From: a virus
Lineage: Duplodnaviria > Heunggongvirae > Uroviricota > Caudoviricetes
IMG/VR virus record: IMGVR_UViG_2718218453_000007
Reading direction: 5' to 3' (one strand)
Length of the DNA stretch: 46,144 nucleotides
In this document: positions 2,338-46,144 of the stretch, one piece after another
Position numbering within the stretch: position 1 is the stretch's first letter
How the letters are laid out: each line of letters starts with the position of its first letter
Position numbers and translations under genes: made by a program
Notes under the pieces: generated by a model
The model's database searches: none
Told to the model about the DNA's origin: nothing
Seen by the model: the letters and a program-made list of their open reading frames with translations, nothing else

Positions 2338-5300
2338 TTATTTAGAGGCAAGCGCCGCCTCAATTGCAGATAATCTTTGTTTTAATTCTGCGTTTTCTTC
2401 TTCCAGCGCGGTAACGCGACCATCTGTTTCACGGGCGACCTGAACAAGTAACCCCGTCACGGCGGCGTAGTCAACATTCAGATAACGTGTTTCTTCACGT
2501 AATTCATTGCCGTCAACCGTTGGTCCCTGCAACTCTTCACCGTAATGAGTAAACGATCCCACAGCTTCTGGTATCGCCTCCATTACTTCCTGTGCAATAA
2601 CGCCAGCATAAGGCATCCCGTTTTCCCTGAGCGTGTAGGTGTATCCGTTCATTTTACGGATTGCTTTCGTCGCGTCGCTGATAACGAGAATATCGTCTTT
2701 AAGGTCGCGGTCTGATGACTGATTCAGCGTTGTGCAATTAATAGCGCCATTTACATCAAACAACTGGCCTGCTGACGTTTTTTGCGCATAAAACAGATAC
2801 GCAGCAGACGTTCCAACCTCAAAAACGTTTTGTCGAGTACTGGAACCCCACACCCTGACAGAAAACGGTAGTTCTGCATTACCTGAGTTCTGTAAAACAA
2901 AACGATTGCCAGTCCCTGTTTGTTTTGTAAGAGTTAAATCAACAGTTGAGTTAACCTCATCCTTGTTGATAGTGAGCGCCTGCGCTTTAGCCCCGTTAAC
3001 AGCACCTGTTTTGAGTTGAACCGCGCCGTCATTACCATTTAACAGTATCTCAGCTCCGCTAAAGAAATTTTTTAGCGACAACATCTTACTTACGCCGACT
3101 GATGAACCCAACGCCCACGCGAGAGAATTACCGGTGCTATCAAACCCACGTACAAAGCAATCCATTTTGCTATAGTCTGACGTGCTTCCAAGGACATCAA
3201 TCCGCCCTCCGCCAGATTTTACCGGGTTAGATGTGGTTAATGACCTGACAGCAAGATCGGTAGATGAATTGAGATCGTCTACTGTTAATAGTCGTTTCCA
3301 TCCCTTATCAACCCCAGCCTCAAAGCTTCTTGCCCAAAATTTGGAGTTGCGACCGGCGAATTGTGTGACGTAATTACCGCTAAATTGAGCATGGAATCCG
3401 CCAACAACCATTGTTCCGTCAGGACCGCCTGCGCTCCCTGCTATTGGCTTAAACTTATTTACATTCTCTGTATGTTGAGTGCTCCAGTTTTGCCCTGTGT
3501 GAACAACCAATCCCTGATAAGAACTGAAGGTACCATCAAGGTTAAAATTAAAGAACTTACTGTTCCATGAATTATTTATATCCGTGACAACAATTTCACC
3601 AGAAGCGTTAGCGGCCCTTAGTTCAGTTTGATCGACAACCGGACCTCCTTCGGATTGTAATCTTTGAGAAACAAATGTTCTGTTTGAAACGTCCGTACCA
3701 TACGCGGTGAAAGATTGTGTTGCTTTAATCTGACCATTGTTTACAAATATAGGAATAGTGACGGTAAAATTTTTGTCAAAACTCAGGCCATTTGTTAATG
3801 CAATCCTTTCTGACACCCCTTGTCTGAACGGAAGGTTGCTGTAGAAGCCATGTTCACCGCCAGTGAAGTCAAGAACATTTTTAACAAAGTTCTTGTCGTT
3901 ATCCTCCGTTGACGTTGATACACCAAACTTATATCTAACCCCGTTGTCACCAATTACGTAGTCTTCTGTTGGAACCTTAACTTTCGCCTTGTAGCCAGTT
4001 TGCACAACGACAGGAAAAGCGCTTTTATGGATGTAGAAAGCTACATGCTGCGCATAATCTCTTTGCGACGCTTTAATGCAAAGTATCCCGAGTTCATTTT
4101 TTTCATAGCAAACAAATGACCCGTAAGCCACATCGCGAACGTCACTCCAGCCACCACATCGAATGAACCCAAAAAATGAGTTACTATTAAGCGGATTTGA
4201 TGCCGGACCTCCTGCTGTTTTTATTTCAACAGGACATAACATAGCACCGCTCCCATTCATTGCGGATGTGTCTATTATGACAGGGTAGTATTTGCCATCC
4301 ACTGCACCACCAGGGGCATTAAGGGTCATCGCTTTTGTTAATCCACCCTCAGGGATTTGCAAATTAGTTTTGGCGTCATCAAGGCTATTTGCGCCAGTGC
4401 CACCATGAGAAACATCAAGCGGTATCCATTTTTTTTGTGTGTCGCTGTAACACCCCCATGTTGATCCGGTTAAACCCAGGCGCATGGATTTATCATGGTT
4501 ATATAACCATGTTTCGCTATTCCATTGGTCAAGACGGTCCACTTCATTTTTGCGAGCGTGGCGTGTCCATTGCGGGCCTGTTGTCGGATTCCAGCGATAA
4601 GTATAAAGCGAGCGCGTAGCCCATCCCTGAAATACACCTGTATACGCTGGAGTTCCATCTACCTGACTAATAAACCCCGTAAGACTGCTTTCACCGGATG
4701 CAATCGATGGAAAGCCTTTTGCATTACTCATAATGCGCATAAATCCGATATACCCTGATGGGTTGCCGGAAATATCAGGACAATCACGCGGGGCTGAGCC
4801 AAGACCGATATTATCGCCAACAATTACTTGCGCCTGGTTGCGATAATTAAGTGCGTCCGCCGCAGATTTCGCCGCGTTTGTTTCACTGGATTTAGCATTA
4901 GTTTCGCTGGCTTTAGCGTTTGTTTCGCTGCTCTTTGCTGCTGCCTCGCTATTTTTCGCGTTGGTTTCTGATTTTTTGGCTGCTGTCGCGGAGTTTGCCG
5001 ATGCAGTTTGTGAGTCTGCTGCCGCCTGTGCGCTGTTATCCGCATTCGTCTCAGACGTTTTTGCGGCCTTCGCGGAATTTCCTGCCGCCGTTGCCGAGGA
5101 AGCGGCATTACTGGCGCTCGAGGCTGCGCTCGTTTCTGATGATTTCGCTGCCTCTTTTGAGGCCGCCGCATCCCGGGCTGAGGTGGCAGCTTCTGACGCT
5201 TTCGTGGTCGCGGTGGATGCAGAAGTGGCTGCAGATTTTTGTGACGCTGCCGCATTCGTTTCTGACGTTTTCGCCGCACCGGCACTGGTAGCCGCCGCGC

Positions 5301-25749: not shown

Positions 25750-25983
25750 ATGTCAACGAAGAACAGAACCCGCAGAACAACAACCCGCAACATCCGCTTT
25801 CCTAACCAAATGATTGAACAAATTAACATCGCTCTTGATCAAAAAGGGTCCGGGAATTTCTCAGCCTGGGTCATTGAAGCCTGCCGCCGGAGACTGTGCT
25901 CAGAAAAAAGAGTTTCTCCTGAAGCAAACAAAGAAAAGAGTGACATTACTGAATTGCTCAGAAAACAGGTTAGACCAGATTGA
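25750..25983 (+). CDS. YlcI-like small protein (DUF3950 family), lambdoid right-end gene
   Basis: MSTKNRTRRTTTRNIRFPNQMIEQINIALDQKGSGNFSAWVIEACRRRL resembles DLP12 YlcI and the lambda right-end ORF, from memory. Confidence 0.6.
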   Translation: MSTKNRTRRTTTRNIRFPNQMIEQINIALDQKGSGNFSAWVIEACRRRLCSEKRVSPEANKEKSDITELLRKQVRPD

Positions 25984-26025
25984 AGCAATTTAGATAATCG
26001 TGCAGACTACGCCCCCTCATATCAC

Positions 26026-26451
26026 ATGGAAGGTACTACAATGGCTCAGGTTGCCATTTTTAAACAAATATTCGATAAAGTGCGAAATAATTTAAACTAT
26101 CACTGGTTTTATTCTGAACTAAAACGTCACAATGTCTCACATTACATTTACTATTTAGCCACAGAGAATATTCATCTTGTTCTTGAAAACGATAATACGG
26201 TTTTAATAAAAGGACAGGGTAAGGTTGTAAATGTAAGATTTTCAAAAAATAAATGCCTTATAGAAGCCACCTTAAAAGGATTCAAATCAGGAGAGTTATC
26301 ATTTTACGAATACAGGAAAAATCTTGCTACAGCAGGGGTTTTCAGATGGATTACAAATATCCACGAAAACAAAAGGTATTACTATACCTTTGATAATTCA
26401 TTACTCTTTACTGAGAACATTCAGAACACTACACAAATATTTCCGCACTAA
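26026..26451 (+). CDS. YbcV-like protein (DUF1398 family)
   Basis: 141-aa AT-rich ORF; resembles DLP12 YbcV family from memory; lies between cos and the lysis genes where lambda carries bor. Confidence 0.5.
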
Positions 26452-30120: not shown

Positions 30121-30150
30121 GGTACAAAAAAACCGCTCAGCGGCGGGTTT
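30121..30150 (-). terminator. Putative late-operon leader terminator (tR'-like)
   Basis: CCGC-tga-GCGG GC-rich hairpin followed by T7 on the minus strand, upstream of the late MTase/lysis genes; stem is short. Confidence 0.35.
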
Positions 30151-30227
30151 AAGTTGTGTGGCGAAGTAACCACTCTTAACAGATTACAATGTTTTTTGCG
30201 GACCGCGCTAATGATTTCCTCTTTTTT

Positions 30228-30257
30228 TTGTTGTATTTTTCACACGGTTGCTAAAAT
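30228..30257 (+). promoter_or_regulatory. Putative sigma70 promoter for the plus-strand accessory cassette
   Basis: TTGTTG (-35), 18-nt spacer, TAAAAT (-10), ~15 nt upstream of the ATG at 30273. Confidence 0.35.
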
Positions 30258-30272
30258 TATTTCGGATCGATA

Positions 30273-31214
30273 ATGAGTACAGAAAATAAGAATAAAACTA
30301 GGCGAGTGAGAGTTGGTTTTTTCACTGGTAATGGAAGCAAAAAAGATGGCACATCTGCTGCAAAACTAGCCTTTGAGCAAATGACCACAGCAGATACTGT
30401 AACTTTTCCAATAACTTACACAACAGACACCCCAAATCGAGGGTTAAAGTTAGTTATTCTTCAAAAAGATACCACACTGCAATGTTACTTTGGTTACGTA
30501 TCGTGGAGAAGGGAATGCCTACTACCGTTCATCGAGGATGCTACAGGTAGTGAGAGAACAATTCCTTTAAATGATAAAGATTCTGTAGTTGAAAGAACAT
30601 ATTTTATCTATTACTACGAAACGGATTTATTAGCTATGACCCTCAACCATATAGGGCCCAAAGTAAATGATCTGGCATTCATTTTGTATAACAAAACTGA
30701 TTTAAAAAGCGTCACTTTTGAAGCCATTTGGAAACAAGAGAGCATGAAGGAACTGCTTGAGGACGGAAATATCCTACGTAGTTTCGATCTTATAGTTGCT
30801 GCTCCAAGAAACTTTAACAAAGCTAATTATAAGATTAAAAACCCTTTAGCTAATGAAATTATTGACATGGTTGTTGGTATGGGCGGGTCGCATCTAAGAT
30901 TAAATATGCGAGGTCGGATTCGCCCGAAAAAACAAGGTTTTAACTATCTAAAAACTTCTGTCACCGATGCTATTAAGGAACTACTTGAACTTTTTCCAAA
31001 AGGTTCTGGAGGTCTAAAAATTAAAAAAATTGATGTAACAGAGCCATCCAATAGAACGCCCAAAAGTCTACTTGACCAAGTATTGGTCAGTACAAAGACA
31101 ATCATTGTCAAAAGCGGTTATCCATCCGATTCTGATATCAGAACGGCGATGATATCTGCTAAAATTGATAACGCGAACTATCTTGCACAGTATGAGCTCG
31201 CTAGCAGAGACTAA
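30273..31214 (+). CDS. Hypothetical cytoplasmic protein (313 aa), first gene of a two-gene accessory cassette
   Basis: AT-rich ORF, opposite orientation to flanking phage genes; no recognisable catalytic motif. Confidence 0.6.
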   Translation: MSTENKNKTRRVRVGFFTGNGSKKDGTSAAKLAFEQMTTADTVTFPITYTTDTPNRGLKLVILQKDTTLQCYFGYVSWRRECLLPFIEDATGSERTIPLNDKDSVVERTYFIYYYETDLLAMTLNHIGPKVNDLAFILYNKTDLKSVTFEAIWKQESMKELLEDGNILRSFDLIVAAPRNFNKANYKIKNPLANEIIDMVVGMGGSHLRLNMRGRIRPKKQGFNYLKTSVTDAIKELLELFPKGSGGLKIKKIDVTEPSNRTPKSLLDQVLVSTKTIIVKSGYPSDSDIRTAMISAKIDNANYLAQYELASRD

Positions 31215-31223
31215 TAACCAAGC

Positions 31224-31685
31224 ATGGAGGACACAATGAGAGAATTAGCCACTTTTCTCTGGAAATGCGTCCTCTGGATTCTGTTGACCTATGCAGCGAC
31301 AAAACTGTTTAAACCGATGAAGCATGCTGACGTACTCACAACAGCGGGGGTGCTCTCGACTATATCAGGCATCCTGTTTGGTTTTGTTCTGGCTGCAATA
31401 TCTATATTTAGTAGTGCAAACAGCGATAAGGAAGGAGCAATTAATGCCCTTAAGCAAAACAACGTGTTACCAACTCTGGTAAATCGATTACTTTCAACAG
31501 GGTTAACTCTCATCGTCGCATGTATATTTCCATTGATAGCGATGTTTCTACCAGATGATGTTATTGTTGCGGGCAAACCTATTGATTTCCTATTCATACT
31601 GTTAGGCTTATCCTCCCTTATAATTTCGCTATATACCTTCGGAAGGTGTTGGTTAGTGTTACGAAAAATCTTCCCCCACTTGTGA
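31224..31685 (+). CDS. Integral membrane protein (about 4 TM helices), second gene of the accessory cassette
   Basis: Hydrophobic segments VLWILLTYAATKLF, VLSTISGILFGFVLAAISIF, LTLIVACIFPLIAMFL, FLFILLGLSSLIISLYTF; 9-nt gap after the upstream gene. Confidence 0.6.
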   Translation: MEDTMRELATFLWKCVLWILLTYAATKLFKPMKHADVLTTAGVLSTISGILFGFVLAAISIFSSANSDKEGAINALKQNNVLPTLVNRLLSTGLTLIVACIFPLIAMFLPDDVIVAGKPIDFLFILLGLSSLIISLYTFGRCWLVLRKIFPHL

Positions 31686-31687
31686 CA

Positions 31688-31714
31688 GGTTGGCCTCATA
31701 TGGGGCCAACCTGT
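31688..31714. other. Inverted repeat between the convergent cassette and Q-like gene
   Basis: AGGTTGGCC-tcatatgg-GGCCAACCT perfect 9-bp inverted repeat; no flanking T-run. Confidence 0.4.
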
Positions 31715-31720
31715 GCAACC

Positions 31721-32089
31721 CTAAGCGTCCATTTCAAGGTTAACATCCAACATTGAAAGGCAACCATCAATAAATCCTTCGGCTAGTTGTATTTCTATGC
31801 GTACCAATTTTTCATCCTTTCCACGCACCTTTGCAATCTTACGCTTGGATATTCTGTATAAATAATGTGCCACAAGCAGCGAGTGCTCATCTGGCTTTTT
31901 TTGCTTTAGACGAGCAAGACAACCTTCAATAATTAATGCATCACTATCTGAACAAGCCTGACGTGTTTTGCTTGTGTAGGGAAGAAGCCCCTTAAACCCA
32001 GCAGCTATAGGCGAATAGTCTACTCCAGAACTATCACTCGCCGCCCATGCTCCCCAACGCTCCAGAACCATCTGAATATCACGCATCAA
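31721..32089 (-). CDS. Q-like late antiterminator (small Q family)
   Basis: MRDIQMVLERWGAWAA...GCLARLKQKKPDEHSLLVAHYLY...MLDVNLEMDA resembles the ~125-aa phage antitermination Q family from memory; positioned upstream of the late/lysis genes. Confidence 0.55.
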   Translation of the reverse strand: MMRDIQMVLERWGAWAASDSSGVDYSPIAAGFKGLLPYTSKTRQACSDSDALIIEGCLARLKQKKPDEHSLLVAHYLYRISKRKIAKVRGKDEKLVRIEIQLAEGFIDGCLSMLDVNLEMDA

Positions 32090-38545: not shown

Positions 38546-39220
38546 ATGAAAACAGTCCATGACATCCGGCGGTCTAACGCCAGAAAACTGAGAGATGGTG
38601 TTGGCGGGAATTCTTCCTTTGCCACCATGATTGATCGCGAGCCAACCCAGACCAGCAGGTTTATGGGAGATGGTGCTACTAAAAATATCGGTGACAGCAT
38701 GGCACGGCACATCGAAAAATGTTTCGACCTGCCTGTCGGATGGCTTGATCAAGAACACCAGACAACAAACATCACAAAAAAACCTGATGTTTCAATTACT
38801 AACAAACAAATAACGTTAGTCCCTGTCATATCATGGGTACAGGCCGGAGCATGGAAAGAAGTTGGCTATTCTGAGGTTGATTTGAGCACAGCAGAAACTT
38901 ATCCCTGCCCTGTACCCTGTGGCGAAATGACTTATATCTTGCGGGTGATTGGTGATTCAATGATTGATGAGTACCGCCCGGGAGACATGATTTTTGTAGA
39001 TCCTGAAGTCCCTGCCTGCCACGGTGACGACGTTATTGCATTGATGCACGATTCAGGCGAAACCACCTTCAAGCGGTTGATAGAAGATGGAACACAGCGT
39101 TATCTCAAAGCATTAAACCCAAACTGGCCTGAGCCTTACATTAAGATTAACGGTAATTGCTCTATAATTGGTACAGTGATTTTCTCGGGAAAACCAAGAA
39201 GATACACAATAAAGGCCTAA
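38546..39220 (+). CDS. CI-like prophage repressor (HTH + S24 LexA-like peptidase domain)
   Basis: C-terminal ...ILRVIGDSMIDEYRPGDMIFVDPE...ALMHDSGETTFKRL... with the Ser (GDSM) / Lys (FKRL) dyad arrangement of S24 autopeptidases. Confidence 0.85.
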   Translation: MKTVHDIRRSNARKLRDGVGGNSSFATMIDREPTQTSRFMGDGATKNIGDSMARHIEKCFDLPVGWLDQEHQTTNITKKPDVSITNKQITLVPVISWVQAGAWKEVGYSEVDLSTAETYPCPVPCGEMTYILRVIGDSMIDEYRPGDMIFVDPEVPACHGDDVIALMHDSGETTFKRLIEDGTQRYLKALNPNWPEPYIKINGNCSIIGTVIFSGKPRRYTIKA

Positions 39221-43494: not shown

Positions 43495-44748
43495 TTATTT
43501 TAATTTTCCCGTACCTCGAAGAAGTGATAGGTATTGATCAGTGGCAAGTAATGGTAGATTATTCTCTTGGCTAGAGTCGATATCTCTAATTAAAATTGTA
43601 CGGTTTTTTATGCTGAACTTGTATTTAGCCTCCAGCATTGCCCAAAACATTCTTTTATTTAATCTTGATAGTCTTATAAAATTTACAAGACCTTCAAGGC
43701 TCATAACTAAAACTTTCGCCCCTTTTGACTCTTTAAGGTTGCTAATTTCGTTATAAATCTTTTCAGCACCTTCTTTCTCTAAAACAAGATCTGAGATTAT
43801 CACTAAATGATAAATACCCTTTCTGCGCTTTATTAAGCATTCCCTCCCGTCATAATTAATAACCACATCATTATTTAGAATTGGGATAACGCCTTTAACC
43901 TGATCGATCCCTTGCAATGCTTTTTTCTTATACATGCTACAAAGCTTTTCATGAGATTTCAAACCCATTTCAATCAAAGATGATGCTTTAGACTGTATAG
44001 ATAATACATAGTCATTTTCTACAATAAGAATATCAACTAGTTCTCTTTTTTTATTACCCTCAATAATATCTGGAGAAAAAAACACTTCCTCCGGTGAAAA
44101 GACCTGCCGCAAAGCATGGTATATAAGAGCTTCCTGCTCATATCCCTCAGAGCCGTTTTCACTGACGCTAAATTCATATGTTAATACGGTATCGTTTGGT
44201 TCATGAACACTTGCTAGGTAAGATTTTTTATCGATTACACTTAGTGGCAGACTAATTATTTTCTCGTTACCAGTCAAAGCATTGTTGCAGAATTCATCCA
44301 TTGCTTCATTACCTTCCCTAAATCCTGAATTGAGAGAATATGAATTAGCACAAAATTTTTTTAAACATTCACACGGTAAATTTTCCGAAACTTTTATTTT
44401 CAGGTCCATAACACGCATTGTATGCGAGTCAAAAAATGATAATAGAATACCATCATAAGCGCCTGACAATAACAAATCCAGCCCTTTAATTTCATCTACC
44501 TCTCTTGGTGGATAGGCTAGTAAAAATGGATTATCGACATTATCTTCAATCAACATCCCAATCACTAGTATATTTTTAGTAGATAAACCTACCAAAAAGT
44601 GGATAGGTGCTCCTGACCAGACGGATTTAATTATAGGAAGGCTTGATTTAAGTATTATGTGGATATTACGATTTTCACTATCTACCCACACTCCATGTAA
44701 CTCATTGTTTAAATAGGCCAAAAGTTTAGTATTCATTTCAACTTTCAT
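43495..44748 (-). CDS. Hypothetical protein (417 aa), AT-rich orphan gene between Xis-like and int
   Basis: Long uninterrupted AT-rich ORF with its own upstream intergenic region; no confident domain assignment; a possible PD-(D/E)xK-like segment (VDILIVENDYVLSIQSK) is speculative. Confidence 0.6.
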   Translation of the reverse strand: MKVEMNTKLLAYLNNELHGVWVDSENRNIHIILKSSLPIIKSVWSGAPIHFLVGLSTKNILVIGMLIEDNVDNPFLLAYPPREVDEIKGLDLLLSGAYDGILLSFFDSHTMRVMDLKIKVSENLPCECLKKFCANSYSLNSGFREGNEAMDEFCNNALTGNEKIISLPLSVIDKKSYLASVHEPNDTVLTYEFSVSENGSEGYEQEALIYHALRQVFSPEEVFFSPDIIEGNKKRELVDILIVENDYVLSIQSKASSLIEMGLKSHEKLCSMYKKKALQGIDQVKGVIPILNNDVVINYDGRECLIKRRKGIYHLVIISDLVLEKEGAEKIYNEISNLKESKGAKVLVMSLEGLVNFIRLSRLNKRMFWAMLEAKYKFSIKNRTILIRDIDSSQENNLPLLATDQYLSLLRGTGKLK

Positions 44749-44920: not shown

Positions 44921-46144
44921 TCAGTTGGTGTCTGAACCAGAACAAGTAACAATCGATTCAACTCTCTCCCACCATGCCTGGTAGGCTTTACGCTGTTCTT
45001 CTAAATAATCACTCTTGTCATAAACTTGCCATACCCCCGGCAGTTTATGACCGAGCATTATTTCTGCGATATGAGGCGCAGTAAGATCAGAAAAGTTTGT
45101 TCGTGCTGTTCGCCTCAAATCATGCAGAGACCAATGAGGGAATTGATACCCCAAACGCCGCCATGCATACTGCATTAAATTGTAAGGCAGCGACTGCAAT
45201 GATGTCCGACCAACGGGTTCCCTGCTTCCTTCCTTAGTAAAAAGCATATCGGAACCATTGTTCATAGAAATAGCGTACTTTATAAGCTCTTCAACCGGTT
45301 CAATAATGGGCCGCTTTAGCGGTTCGCCCGTTATCTCCCCAGTCTTATGTCGTTCTGGTGGTACAGTCCATACTTTATTAATGAAATCAAAATCGTCCAC
45401 CCTGGCGGTAATTAGCTCTGAACTACGGCAGCCAAAATGCAGCAATAGTTTAATGAAGGCCCGGTATTTAGGAACCATTCGAGAACCATCGATCGCAGCA
45501 TAAAGGATTTTAATTTCATCATGTGTCAGAAACCGTTTCTTCTGACCTTTACGGATATCCATATCTTTACCCGTGATATCCGACAGCGGGCGAGTTTCAA
45601 TGAGCTTTCTCTTATACGCCCAGACATGGGCCTGCTTTGCGTTAATTAGCAATCGGTCTGCTATTGCTGGAGTCTTAGTGCTAAGAGGCTCCAGGACTTC
45701 TAACCAATCATGCAATGTAGCTGCATCGTGAGGGATATTCCCGATTTTAGAGAACAGGTGCAGCTCAAACGAGCGGAGTATCTGTTCAGAGCCTTTTTTA
45801 TTTTTTACACAATATGCTTCATACCAGGCACGGATCACAGACTCTACCGTCATGGCTTCAGTAGCTTTTCGTTTTTCAGCCTGCTTGACCAATCGTGGAT
45901 TACGGTTTGACTCGAGTTCACCACGGAGACGGATAACTTCTTCTCTGGCCTCTTTTAATCCAGTTGCTGGGTAAGTTCCGATATCAAGACGCTCACCTTT
46001 CCCTGCCCATTGATAACGATATTGGAACACTACGCGACCTTTCGGTGATACTCTGACAGACAGACCATCACGATCGGATTTAACCAAAACCTTATCACGT
46101 TCCTTTCCAACGACTGAACGCAACCACGCATCAGACAGCGCCAT
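44921..46144 (-). CDS. int: Tyrosine integrase, P4-family
   Basis: N-terminus MALSDAWLRSVVGKERDKVLVKSDRDGLSVRVSPKGRVVFQYRYQWAGKGERLDIG typical of P4-type integrases; C-terminal catalytic region with HDLRRT and LGHKL...Y; start codon is the last 3 nt of the window. Confidence 0.9.
   Translation of the reverse strand: MALSDAWLRSVVGKERDKVLVKSDRDGLSVRVSPKGRVVFQYRYQWAGKGERLDIGTYPATGLKEAREEVIRLRGELESNRNPRLVKQAEKRKATEAMTVESVIRAWYEAYCVKNKKGSEQILRSFELHLFSKIGNIPHDAATLHDWLEVLEPLSTKTPAIADRLLINAKQAHVWAYKRKLIETRPLSDITGKDMDIRKGQKKRFLTHDEIKILYAAIDGSRMVPKYRAFIKLLLHFGCRSSELITARVDDFDFINKVWTVPPERHKTGEITGEPLKRPIIEPVEELIKYAISMNNGSDMLFTKEGSREPVGRTSLQSLPYNLMQYAWRRLGYQFPHWSLHDLRRTARTNFSDLTAPHIAEIMLGHKLPGVWQVYDKSDYLEEQRKAYQAWWERVESIVTCSGSDTN

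Follow-up and report, generated by a model that had tools for sequence, protein, structure and literature searches.

The two-gene cassette

This study concerns a stretch of 46,144 nucleotides (nt) from a virus of the Caudoviricetes (IMG/VR record IMGVR_UViG_2718218453_000007), referred to at its full length as the window, and in particular two adjacent plus-strand genes within it, named here A and B. Gene A encodes a soluble protein without transmembrane (TM) segments and gene B a predicted four-helix inner-membrane protein (Table 1). It is very probable that the pair is remotely related to RexA and RexB of phage lambda, a kinship that had so far gone unrecognised. Both open reading frames (ORFs) were found where an earlier note, made from the letters of this DNA alone, had seen two linked plus-strand genes set against minus-strand phage genes, and the AT-rich character noted there is reflected in a guanine-plus-cytosine (GC) content of 0.37-0.41, against 0.50-0.57 in the flanks. 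A and B are transcribed opposite to the surrounding late and early phage genes; the left flank carries on the minus strand a 95-aa ORF and the genes for a DNA methyltransferase, a holin, a DUF1327 protein, an endolysin and Rz (late/lysis genes). The A stop and the B start are 21 nt apart, and the order of the genes, soluble then membrane, is that of lambda rexA-rexB. The start of B is almost certainly the ATG at 31236, giving 149 aa, and not the in-frame ATG upstream at 31224 that would give 153 aa, because GGAGGA lies 4 nt upstream of the former, the RefSeq start is the same and the homologues have 145-149 aa.

A and B are real genes and not chance ORFs, since the ratio of nonsynonymous to synonymous substitution (dN/dS) ranges over 0.03-0.05 in A and 0.04-0.11 in B, at nearly saturated synonymous sites, since 73 of 5426 complete E. 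coli genomes carry the cassette at 99% identity or more, and since dozens of homologues are found across Enterobacterales, among them Citrobacter, Serratia, Yersinia, Salmonella, Klebsiella, Proteus, Xenorhabdus and Pectobacterium. A second allele, known from phage cdtI (orf54/orf53), occupies the same slot in 25 further E. coli genomes of the 5426. Its proteins are 45% (A) and 50% (B) identical to those of the window, and the RefSeq name for its A protein is "DUF6731 family protein". Two other accounts of the ORFs were examined and rejected. Non-functional ORFs are ruled out by dN/dS values well under 1, and lysis accessory or structural proteins by the wrong strand, the variable slot and the occurrence outside lambdoid phages.

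The two genes are tightly linked. Homology to A recovered 84 loci. In 83 of them B directly follows A, the lone exception being a locus (L040) with A truncated at residue 209. A remote set comprises eight DUF6731 genes that are 19-32% identical to A, and all eight are followed by a small partner gene of 132-152 aa, frequently overlapping the DUF6731 gene, whose product is multi-TM. The pair was thus found adjacent in 83/84 close and 8/8 remote loci, which answers in the affirmative the question, posed in the earlier note, of whether it is co-conserved and moves as a unit. Identities of A and B drop in step (100/100, 85/87, 62/54, 45/50), whereas the values of the neighbouring genes for Q, DUF968 and the methyltransferase may remain at 88-100%. 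Because the former fall together while the flanks stay, the sequences show the pattern of a co-evolving module exchanged as a cassette. The 43%-identical clade is found in other phage contexts, adjoining tail or excisionase-like genes and without this Q, and pairs of the A-B type reach non-enteric bacteria. A scan of the species genome contigs returned only two loci.

Several individual loci deserve mention. In L040 (6001-6630), where A stops after residue 209, both B and Q are missing. In a locus of Citrobacter braakii (L003, 6499-7416), A is interrupted and a 237-aa ORF is left. Both loci point to decay or rearrangement now and then. One remote DUF6731 pair (306 aa and 132 aa) lies on a metagenomic contig (L176, 662-5557) near a regulator with helix-turn-helix (HTH) and Peptidase_M78 (ImmA/IrrE-type) domains. 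Regulators of this kind are typical of mobile-element switch modules.

Families and predicted folds of the two proteins

Searches of the window A protein against Pfam and PADLOC (both at E<=1) and against NCBIfam gave nothing, and PHROGs returned only phrog_7651, whose function is unknown. For A and B alike, these four collections yielded no more than PHROGs of unknown function and noise below threshold. Homologues with 45-62% identity to A match the Pfam family DUF6731 (PF20505) at 31-45 bits, where the gathering score is 27 bits; the window protein itself has no match to the PF20505 model at E<=1. A profile of the A family, searched against 1.84 billion representatives, retrieved 171 single-domain proteins, mostly of 280-320 aa, and DUF6731 matches are present in 53 of 61 sampled proteins retrieved with this profile. 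A can be regarded as a divergent and distant member of DUF6731 because of clear full-length homology to members, and not because of a match to the model.

The AlphaFold2 (AF2) model of A contains seven N-terminal strands, then a four-strand module with helices, and then a C-terminal helix. This secondary-structure order agrees with the RexA architecture described in PMC11077077, which consists of a split globular domain and an inserted dimerisation domain. The characteristic parts of the RexA fold, a seven-stranded split globular domain and a four-stranded/helical dimerisation domain related to RdgC, are all recognisable in A. The fold of RdgC, a recombination-associated DNA-binding protein, is also among the structural matches of A, and the best match in BFVD comes from the uncultured phage Siphoviridae sp. 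ctylc9. On the basis of the model, A is predicted to have a RexA/RdgC-type two-domain fold. PADLOC and structure searches, both named as checks in the earlier note, gave different answers, with no PADLOC match for the window proteins and a structural match of A to the RexA fold. Profile comparison aligned DUF6731 with a RexA family profile of 23 members at E 3.9e-4 over 221 colinear columns, nearly both full lengths, and the alignment displays the common motif G-P-x(3)-D-L-x(2)-[FIY]-L. This profile match alone would not be convincing, yet it agrees with the result from the fold. Within the A family, the residues N125-H126-x-G128-P129-K130 and A177-P178-R179-x-F181 are invariant. Single-sequence hhalign comparison of the A family with lambda RexA gave E 0.05, and better values were reached only with family profiles and intermediate alignments.

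The AF2 model of B, with a mean predicted local distance difference test (pLDDT) of 81, shows four long helices in a bundle and a short one within the central loop, and agrees with the four-TM topology that the earlier note had read from the sequence. TM2 (GILFGFVLA, G45-A53) and the A-L-K motif of the central loop (A71-L72-K73, numbered on 149 aa) are invariant in the B family. The window B family aligns by hhalign to the remote DUF6731 partners over the full length (99.2%, E 1e-19). Four of the six remote partners examined first match PADLOC RexB (3.1e-6, 3.8e-6, 4.6e-5 and 0.013), and the alignment of remote partners matches lambda RexB in TM2 and the loop at E 6.7e-5, or 3.3e-5 with eight sequences. 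As each step from the B family through the remote partners to RexB is significant, B is probably a distant RexB relative. In BFVD it is matched best by a protein of Siphoviridae sp. ctylc9, the uncultured phage that also supplies the best match of A, and next best by a 165-aa protein from mycobacteriophage Sbash (Foldseek probability 1.0, template-modelling score 0.53). The latter is presumably gp31, judged by its length, since Sbash gene 31, a validated RexB-like effector, encodes exactly 165 aa.

Weak similarity was also found to the PADLOC candidate system PDC-M67. Relatives of A match PDC-M67A weakly and colinearly (4 of 61, best 7e-4), and one remote partner matches PDC-M67B at 1e-3. The window proteins have no match and the matches of the relatives are marginal. 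On these weak matches, PDC-M67 may represent a further, neighbouring branch within this superfamily. The earlier note had mentioned a loose likeness to Kiwa, a system of the membrane protein KwaA with KwaB. The sole resemblance lies in the gross layout of one membrane protein and one soluble protein of about 310 aa; neither the order of KwaA followed by KwaB (DUF4868) nor the corresponding PADLOC matches were found, which leaves the likeness unsupported and a Kiwa-type system highly improbable.

The slot between Q and a late-promoter-like element, and other features of the window

The coordinates of the cassette and of the elements around it are collected in Table 1. On its right side lies an antiterminator gene of the QuuD type, here called Q, which is convergent with B in 77 of the 84 loci. 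On its left side, a conserved non-coding element upstream of A was found by comparison across loci (…GTAACCACTCTTAACA…TTTTTGCGGACCGCG…TAATGATTT…). In the window, TTAGCG-17-TGTAAT occupies 30211-30183 of the minus strand and is followed by the conserved GTTAAGAGTGGTTAC and then by an intrinsic terminator; the sequence TGCGGACCGC inside the element (30197-30206 on the plus strand) occurs only once in the window. The core motif TGCG[GT]ACC?GC has 77 occurrences in 1.83 Mb of loci, 75 of which sit upstream of A at a distance of 76-133 nt. Of the 77 loci with this Q family 74 carry it, the six A-B loci without Q all lack it, and it recurs in L040, which has the truncated A and no Q match. A separate locus (L005, about 2700-3104) has an identical A and lacks the upstream motif, a further sign of occasional decay or rearrangement.

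Table 1. Genes and sequence elements of the cassette and its borders
Feature	Position	Strand	Basis and remarks
Gene A, 313 aa, soluble, no TM	30273..31214	+	ORF; proposed sensor/activator
Gene B, 149 aa, predicted four-helix inner-membrane protein	31236..31685	+	ORF; proposed effector
Shine-Dalgarno sequence GGAGGA for B	31226..31231	+	sequence; 12-17 nt past the A stop
Antiterminator Q, right edge of the slot	31721..32089	-	PF06530, 7.7e-52; BLASTP to QuuD of K-12 DLP12, 2e-40, 50% identity
Q-linked conserved element, left edge of the slot	30166..30211	-	TTAGCG-17-TGTAAT, then CTGTTAAGAGTGGTTAC; outside the cassette proper
Intrinsic terminator AAACCCGCCGCTGAGCGG + T7	30126..30150	-	terminator scan; some 30 nt past the promoter-like element, in the downstream direction
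Promoter candidate 1 for A-B, TGATTT-16-TATTTT	30212-30239	+	putative
Promoter candidate 2 for A-B, TTGTTG-18-TAAAAT	30228-30257	+	putative; not conserved
13-bp perfect stem-loop, no T-run on either strand	31685..31714	.	between the convergent B and Q stops

The conserved block that this DNA has in common with mEp460 and Stx2c phages ends at the terminator. The Q-linked element, its conserved follow-on and the terminator probably correspond to the late promoter of Q, a Q-loading/binding or pause site, and tR', the promoter role being assigned from the arrangement. The layout of promoter-like element, conserved initial transcribed region and terminator resembles that of lambda pR'-tR'.

A survey of 80 loci recovered through Q reveals how variable this gap is. 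The motif lies 29-34 nt past the Q stop in 14 of them, where the slot is empty; it lies about 1.5 kb from Q in 19 loci with A-B in the slot, and 0.8-1.8 kb from Q in 40 loci with other inserts. By size, the other inserts (loci L105-L174) form at least ten classes. All have a GC of 0.32-0.43 and are coded against Q, and comparison with RexA and RexB profiles found them unrelated. Because the gap is empty, filled with A-B or otherwise filled among the Q loci, A-B sits in a cargo slot of variable content, bordered by Q and by what is presumably the cognate late promoter of Q. One insert, seen in L158 and L174, encodes a soluble 356-aa protein with a 170-aa four-TM protein, a pair unrelated in sequence to A and B. 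Other inserts were judged by eye as TIR-like (L138, L142) or as a KAP P-loop protein (L108), calls that were unconfirmed by a search of PDB sequences. The earlier note had taken the locus for the Q-to-lysis moron site at which Stx phages carry stx. The stx genes lie downstream of the late promoter and terminator (tR'). Proximity to the Q/lysis junction is confirmed, and the equation with the stx position is not, since the pair lies upstream of the late-promoter-like element.

The slot bears directly on the idea that the pair regulates the life cycle of the phage, with A placed back-to-back with the late promoter and B as an accessory. Such a role would have a precedent in lambda RexA, which according to PMC11077077 acts without RexB on the bistable switch, and the start of A is separated from the Q-linked promoter-like element by just about 60-110 nt. 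Against it, the slot is empty in 14 loci and filled with unrelated cassettes in 40, so the phage does not need A-B for the function of Q; phages that lack this Q also carry the pair, beside tail or excisionase-like genes, as do non-enteric bacteria; and B is always retained with A. A life-cycle regulator is therefore quite unlikely. The cargo of a related prophage raises another alternative, in which the pair is a membrane-level moron for superinfection exclusion or host fitness and has nothing to do with abortive infection. B could then block DNA entry or alter the physiology of the envelope, and A could be an RdgC-like modulator of recombination that is linked to B by chance. In E. coli K-12 DLP12 the porin gene nmpC, not a defence gene, lies at the equivalent position from quuD to the lysis genes, on the opposite strand between quuD and essD, an arrangement of broadly the same kind. 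DLP12, with a QuuD of 50% identity to this Q, does not have the exact Q-linked motif. This precedent and the RdgC fold among the matches of A speak for a moron of this kind, which is on the whole unlikely.

Two promoter candidates for A-B were considered, and neither passed a scan with the consensus promoter. The TA(G/T)TATTTT of candidate 1 (-10-like, at 30234-30239) is conserved in closer alleles. Candidate 2 is the promoter proposed in the earlier note; the sequence is present where it was described, and it matches the -35 consensus at just 3 of 6 positions and is unconserved in diverged alleles. At the other end of the cassette, the stem-loop between B and Q has a predicted RNA folding energy of -27.3 kcal/mol (z -4.5; none of 200 shuffles as stable) and may end or insulate the two converging transcripts.

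Further cargo was observed elsewhere in the window. At the tail-fibre end, positions 1-1900 of the plus strand encode a second defence system with GC of 0.31-0.36. It consists of a SLATT_5 two-TM protein of 183 aa (1-552; PADLOC RTasSLATT 1.3e-56), whose ORF begins right at the edge of the window and is possibly truncated, and a reverse transcriptase of 458 aa in an overlapping gene (524-1900; PADLOC RT_UG17 1.2e-158, Pfam RVT_1). On the minus strand, a 417-aa ORF at 43495-44748 lies in an island of GC 0.34 adjoining the integrase (44921-46144), gave no Pfam or PADLOC match, and looks like orphan cargo at the attachment-site end. Two small AT-rich plus-strand genes (25750-26451) lie between the terminase and lysis genes and are annotated as YlcI/YnfO family and DUF1398 in a near-identical prophage of E. 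coli 1283.

A proposed RexAB-type exclusion system

RexAB is the oldest known abortive-infection system, and we know of no account that settles its trigger or the mode by which RexA activates RexB. As of January 2026, the number of described Rex-like systems stood at just five (PMC12894663). We propose that A-B is a RexAB-type two-component exclusion system in which A would be the sensor and B the membrane effector, with a probability of about 0.62. The pair is very probably Rex-like by descent and architecture, and it is somewhat likely, by analogy, that two-component exclusion is its function. On the model of lambda RexAB, Sbash gp30/31, CarolAnn gp44/43 and P. putida RexABpp, the pair would be expressed from its own promoter in the lysogen, and A, probably a DNA-binding dimer, would detect a product of the superinfecting phage or a DNA-protein intermediate. 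A might then activate B, which would compromise membrane potential or integrity, and the growth arrest that follows would abort the infection. The earlier note had suggested the soluble-sensor and multi-TM-effector plan of abortive infection. Its layout holds and has gained a Rex homology through the fold of A and the family link of B, and the function it implied is carried by analogy.

The likeness to lambda RexA/RexB (PF15969/PF15968; RexA structure PDB 8TWQ) is first of all one of arrangement. Both pairs are prophage-borne and consist of adjacent, co-oriented genes for a soluble protein of about 280-310 aa and then a four-TM protein of about 145-150 aa, within the range of Rex-type pairs in general (soluble, about 280-370 aa, then four-TM, about 140-165 aa, co-oriented). 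The wider family of B also reaches RexB by profile methods. The two pairs differ in that A-B has no direct match to the hidden Markov models of RexA and RexB, shows about 13-15% identity in alignments, and has its A protein in a separate Pfam family, DUF6731. They differ also in placement: the lambda pair lies in the immunity region downstream of cI and, as in some homologues, is co-transcribed with the CI repressor, whereas A-B fills the space from Q to the late-promoter-like element and presumably has a promoter of its own. RexABpp of P. putida prophage P1 (PP_5643/PP_5644; Sci Rep 2026, PMC12894663) likewise lies downstream of a CI-like repressor. Placement in the immunity region varies among Rex homologues, with Sbash, Butters and Rubeelu differing from lambda.

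The Rex-like systems of actinobacteriophages (Sbash gp30/gp31, CarolAnn gp44/gp43, Butters gp30/gp31) share the combination of a soluble and a four-TM protein with A-B. In Sbash (KP027201, L095 6934-8509), genes 30 and 31 overlap by about 40 nt and directly follow lysin A, lysin B and holin. An overlap is also present in many DUF6731 pairs, and a Rex pair beside the lysis cassette, not the repressor, parallels the lysis-proximal position of A-B. Sbash gp30 is 372 aa long, and the host belongs to a different phylum.

A number of results weigh against the RexAB-type assignment. The hhalign probability of the DUF6731-RexA profile match is just 36%. Neither window A (at E<=1) nor its 61 relatives matched the RexA models PF15969 and PADLOC RexA. 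A profile search of PDB sequences did not recover RexA, the A3 profile returning nothing and the A5 profile solely a spurious eIF2-alpha at E about 0.07. For B, searches against the RexB models PF15968 and PADLOC RexB gave no match at E<=1, direct hhalign comparison of window-type B with RexB was insignificant, and the merged profile of window B and the remote partners reached RexB just at E 0.013, in the TM2-loop region. No sequence signal was detected when A and B profiles were compared by hhalign with Sbash gp30/gp31. The cassette is not beside the repressor as in lambda, the cI-like gene lying at about 38546-39220, about 7 kb off; no canonical rexA or rexB was found near that gene. Finally, the RexB-independent part in the lysis-lysogeny switch is a second role of lambda RexA, so homology does not fix the function of A-B. 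Taken together, the pair has the architecture and fold of RexAB, stands outside the RexA and RexB sequence families in direct searches, and differs in placement.

The direction of the proposed mechanism may also be turned around. For Butters it is reported that the RexA-like gp30 acts as effector and that defence does not require the RexB-like gp31 (PMC12894663). By the same logic A would inhibit growth and B would restrain it until infection, which would still make A-B a defence pair of the Rex kind; sequence analysis does not tell the two directions apart. However, in four of the five Rex-like systems described the effector is the membrane protein, purifying selection on B is as strong as on A, and B is most conserved in TM2 and the central loop, the latter being the loop in which mutations of gp31 were found to abolish the defence of Sbash. 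Reversed roles are thus unlikely, and B remains the preferred candidate for the effector of the RexAB-type system.

Literature searches gave no paper on DUF6731, PF20505, PDC-M67 or the RefSeq/GenBank protein accessions, and in the literature searched no report was found that links DUF6731 or these E. coli genes to Rex. A wider reading in three parts, which as a whole we regard as tentative, would bring the observations together. Firstly, DUF6731 proteins and their four-TM partners could constitute a large unrecognised branch of the Rex superfamily acting as phage defence, ranging through Enterobacterales and reaching Vibrio, Shewanella, Pseudoalteromonas and Magnetococcus. Secondly, the short gap of QuuD-type Q loci in lambdoid phages could be a dedicated slot for exchangeable defence cargo, with at least ten alternative AT-rich cassettes, all coded against Q. 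Thirdly, the orientation could act as a safety switch: the lysogen would express the cargo, and once the prophage itself turns lytic, read-through from the early operon would silence it as antisense transcript.

If true, a Pfam domain of unknown function would gain a function, and it would be explained why defence finders miss these genes. A well-populated and highly diverged family of E. coli and its relatives with invariant residues in both partners is tractable material for the comparative study of the Rex mechanism. The gap between Q and the late promoter, with its empty-site reference and many cassettes, looks like a compact and recognisable hotspot and may serve as a hunting ground for defence genes borne by prophages.

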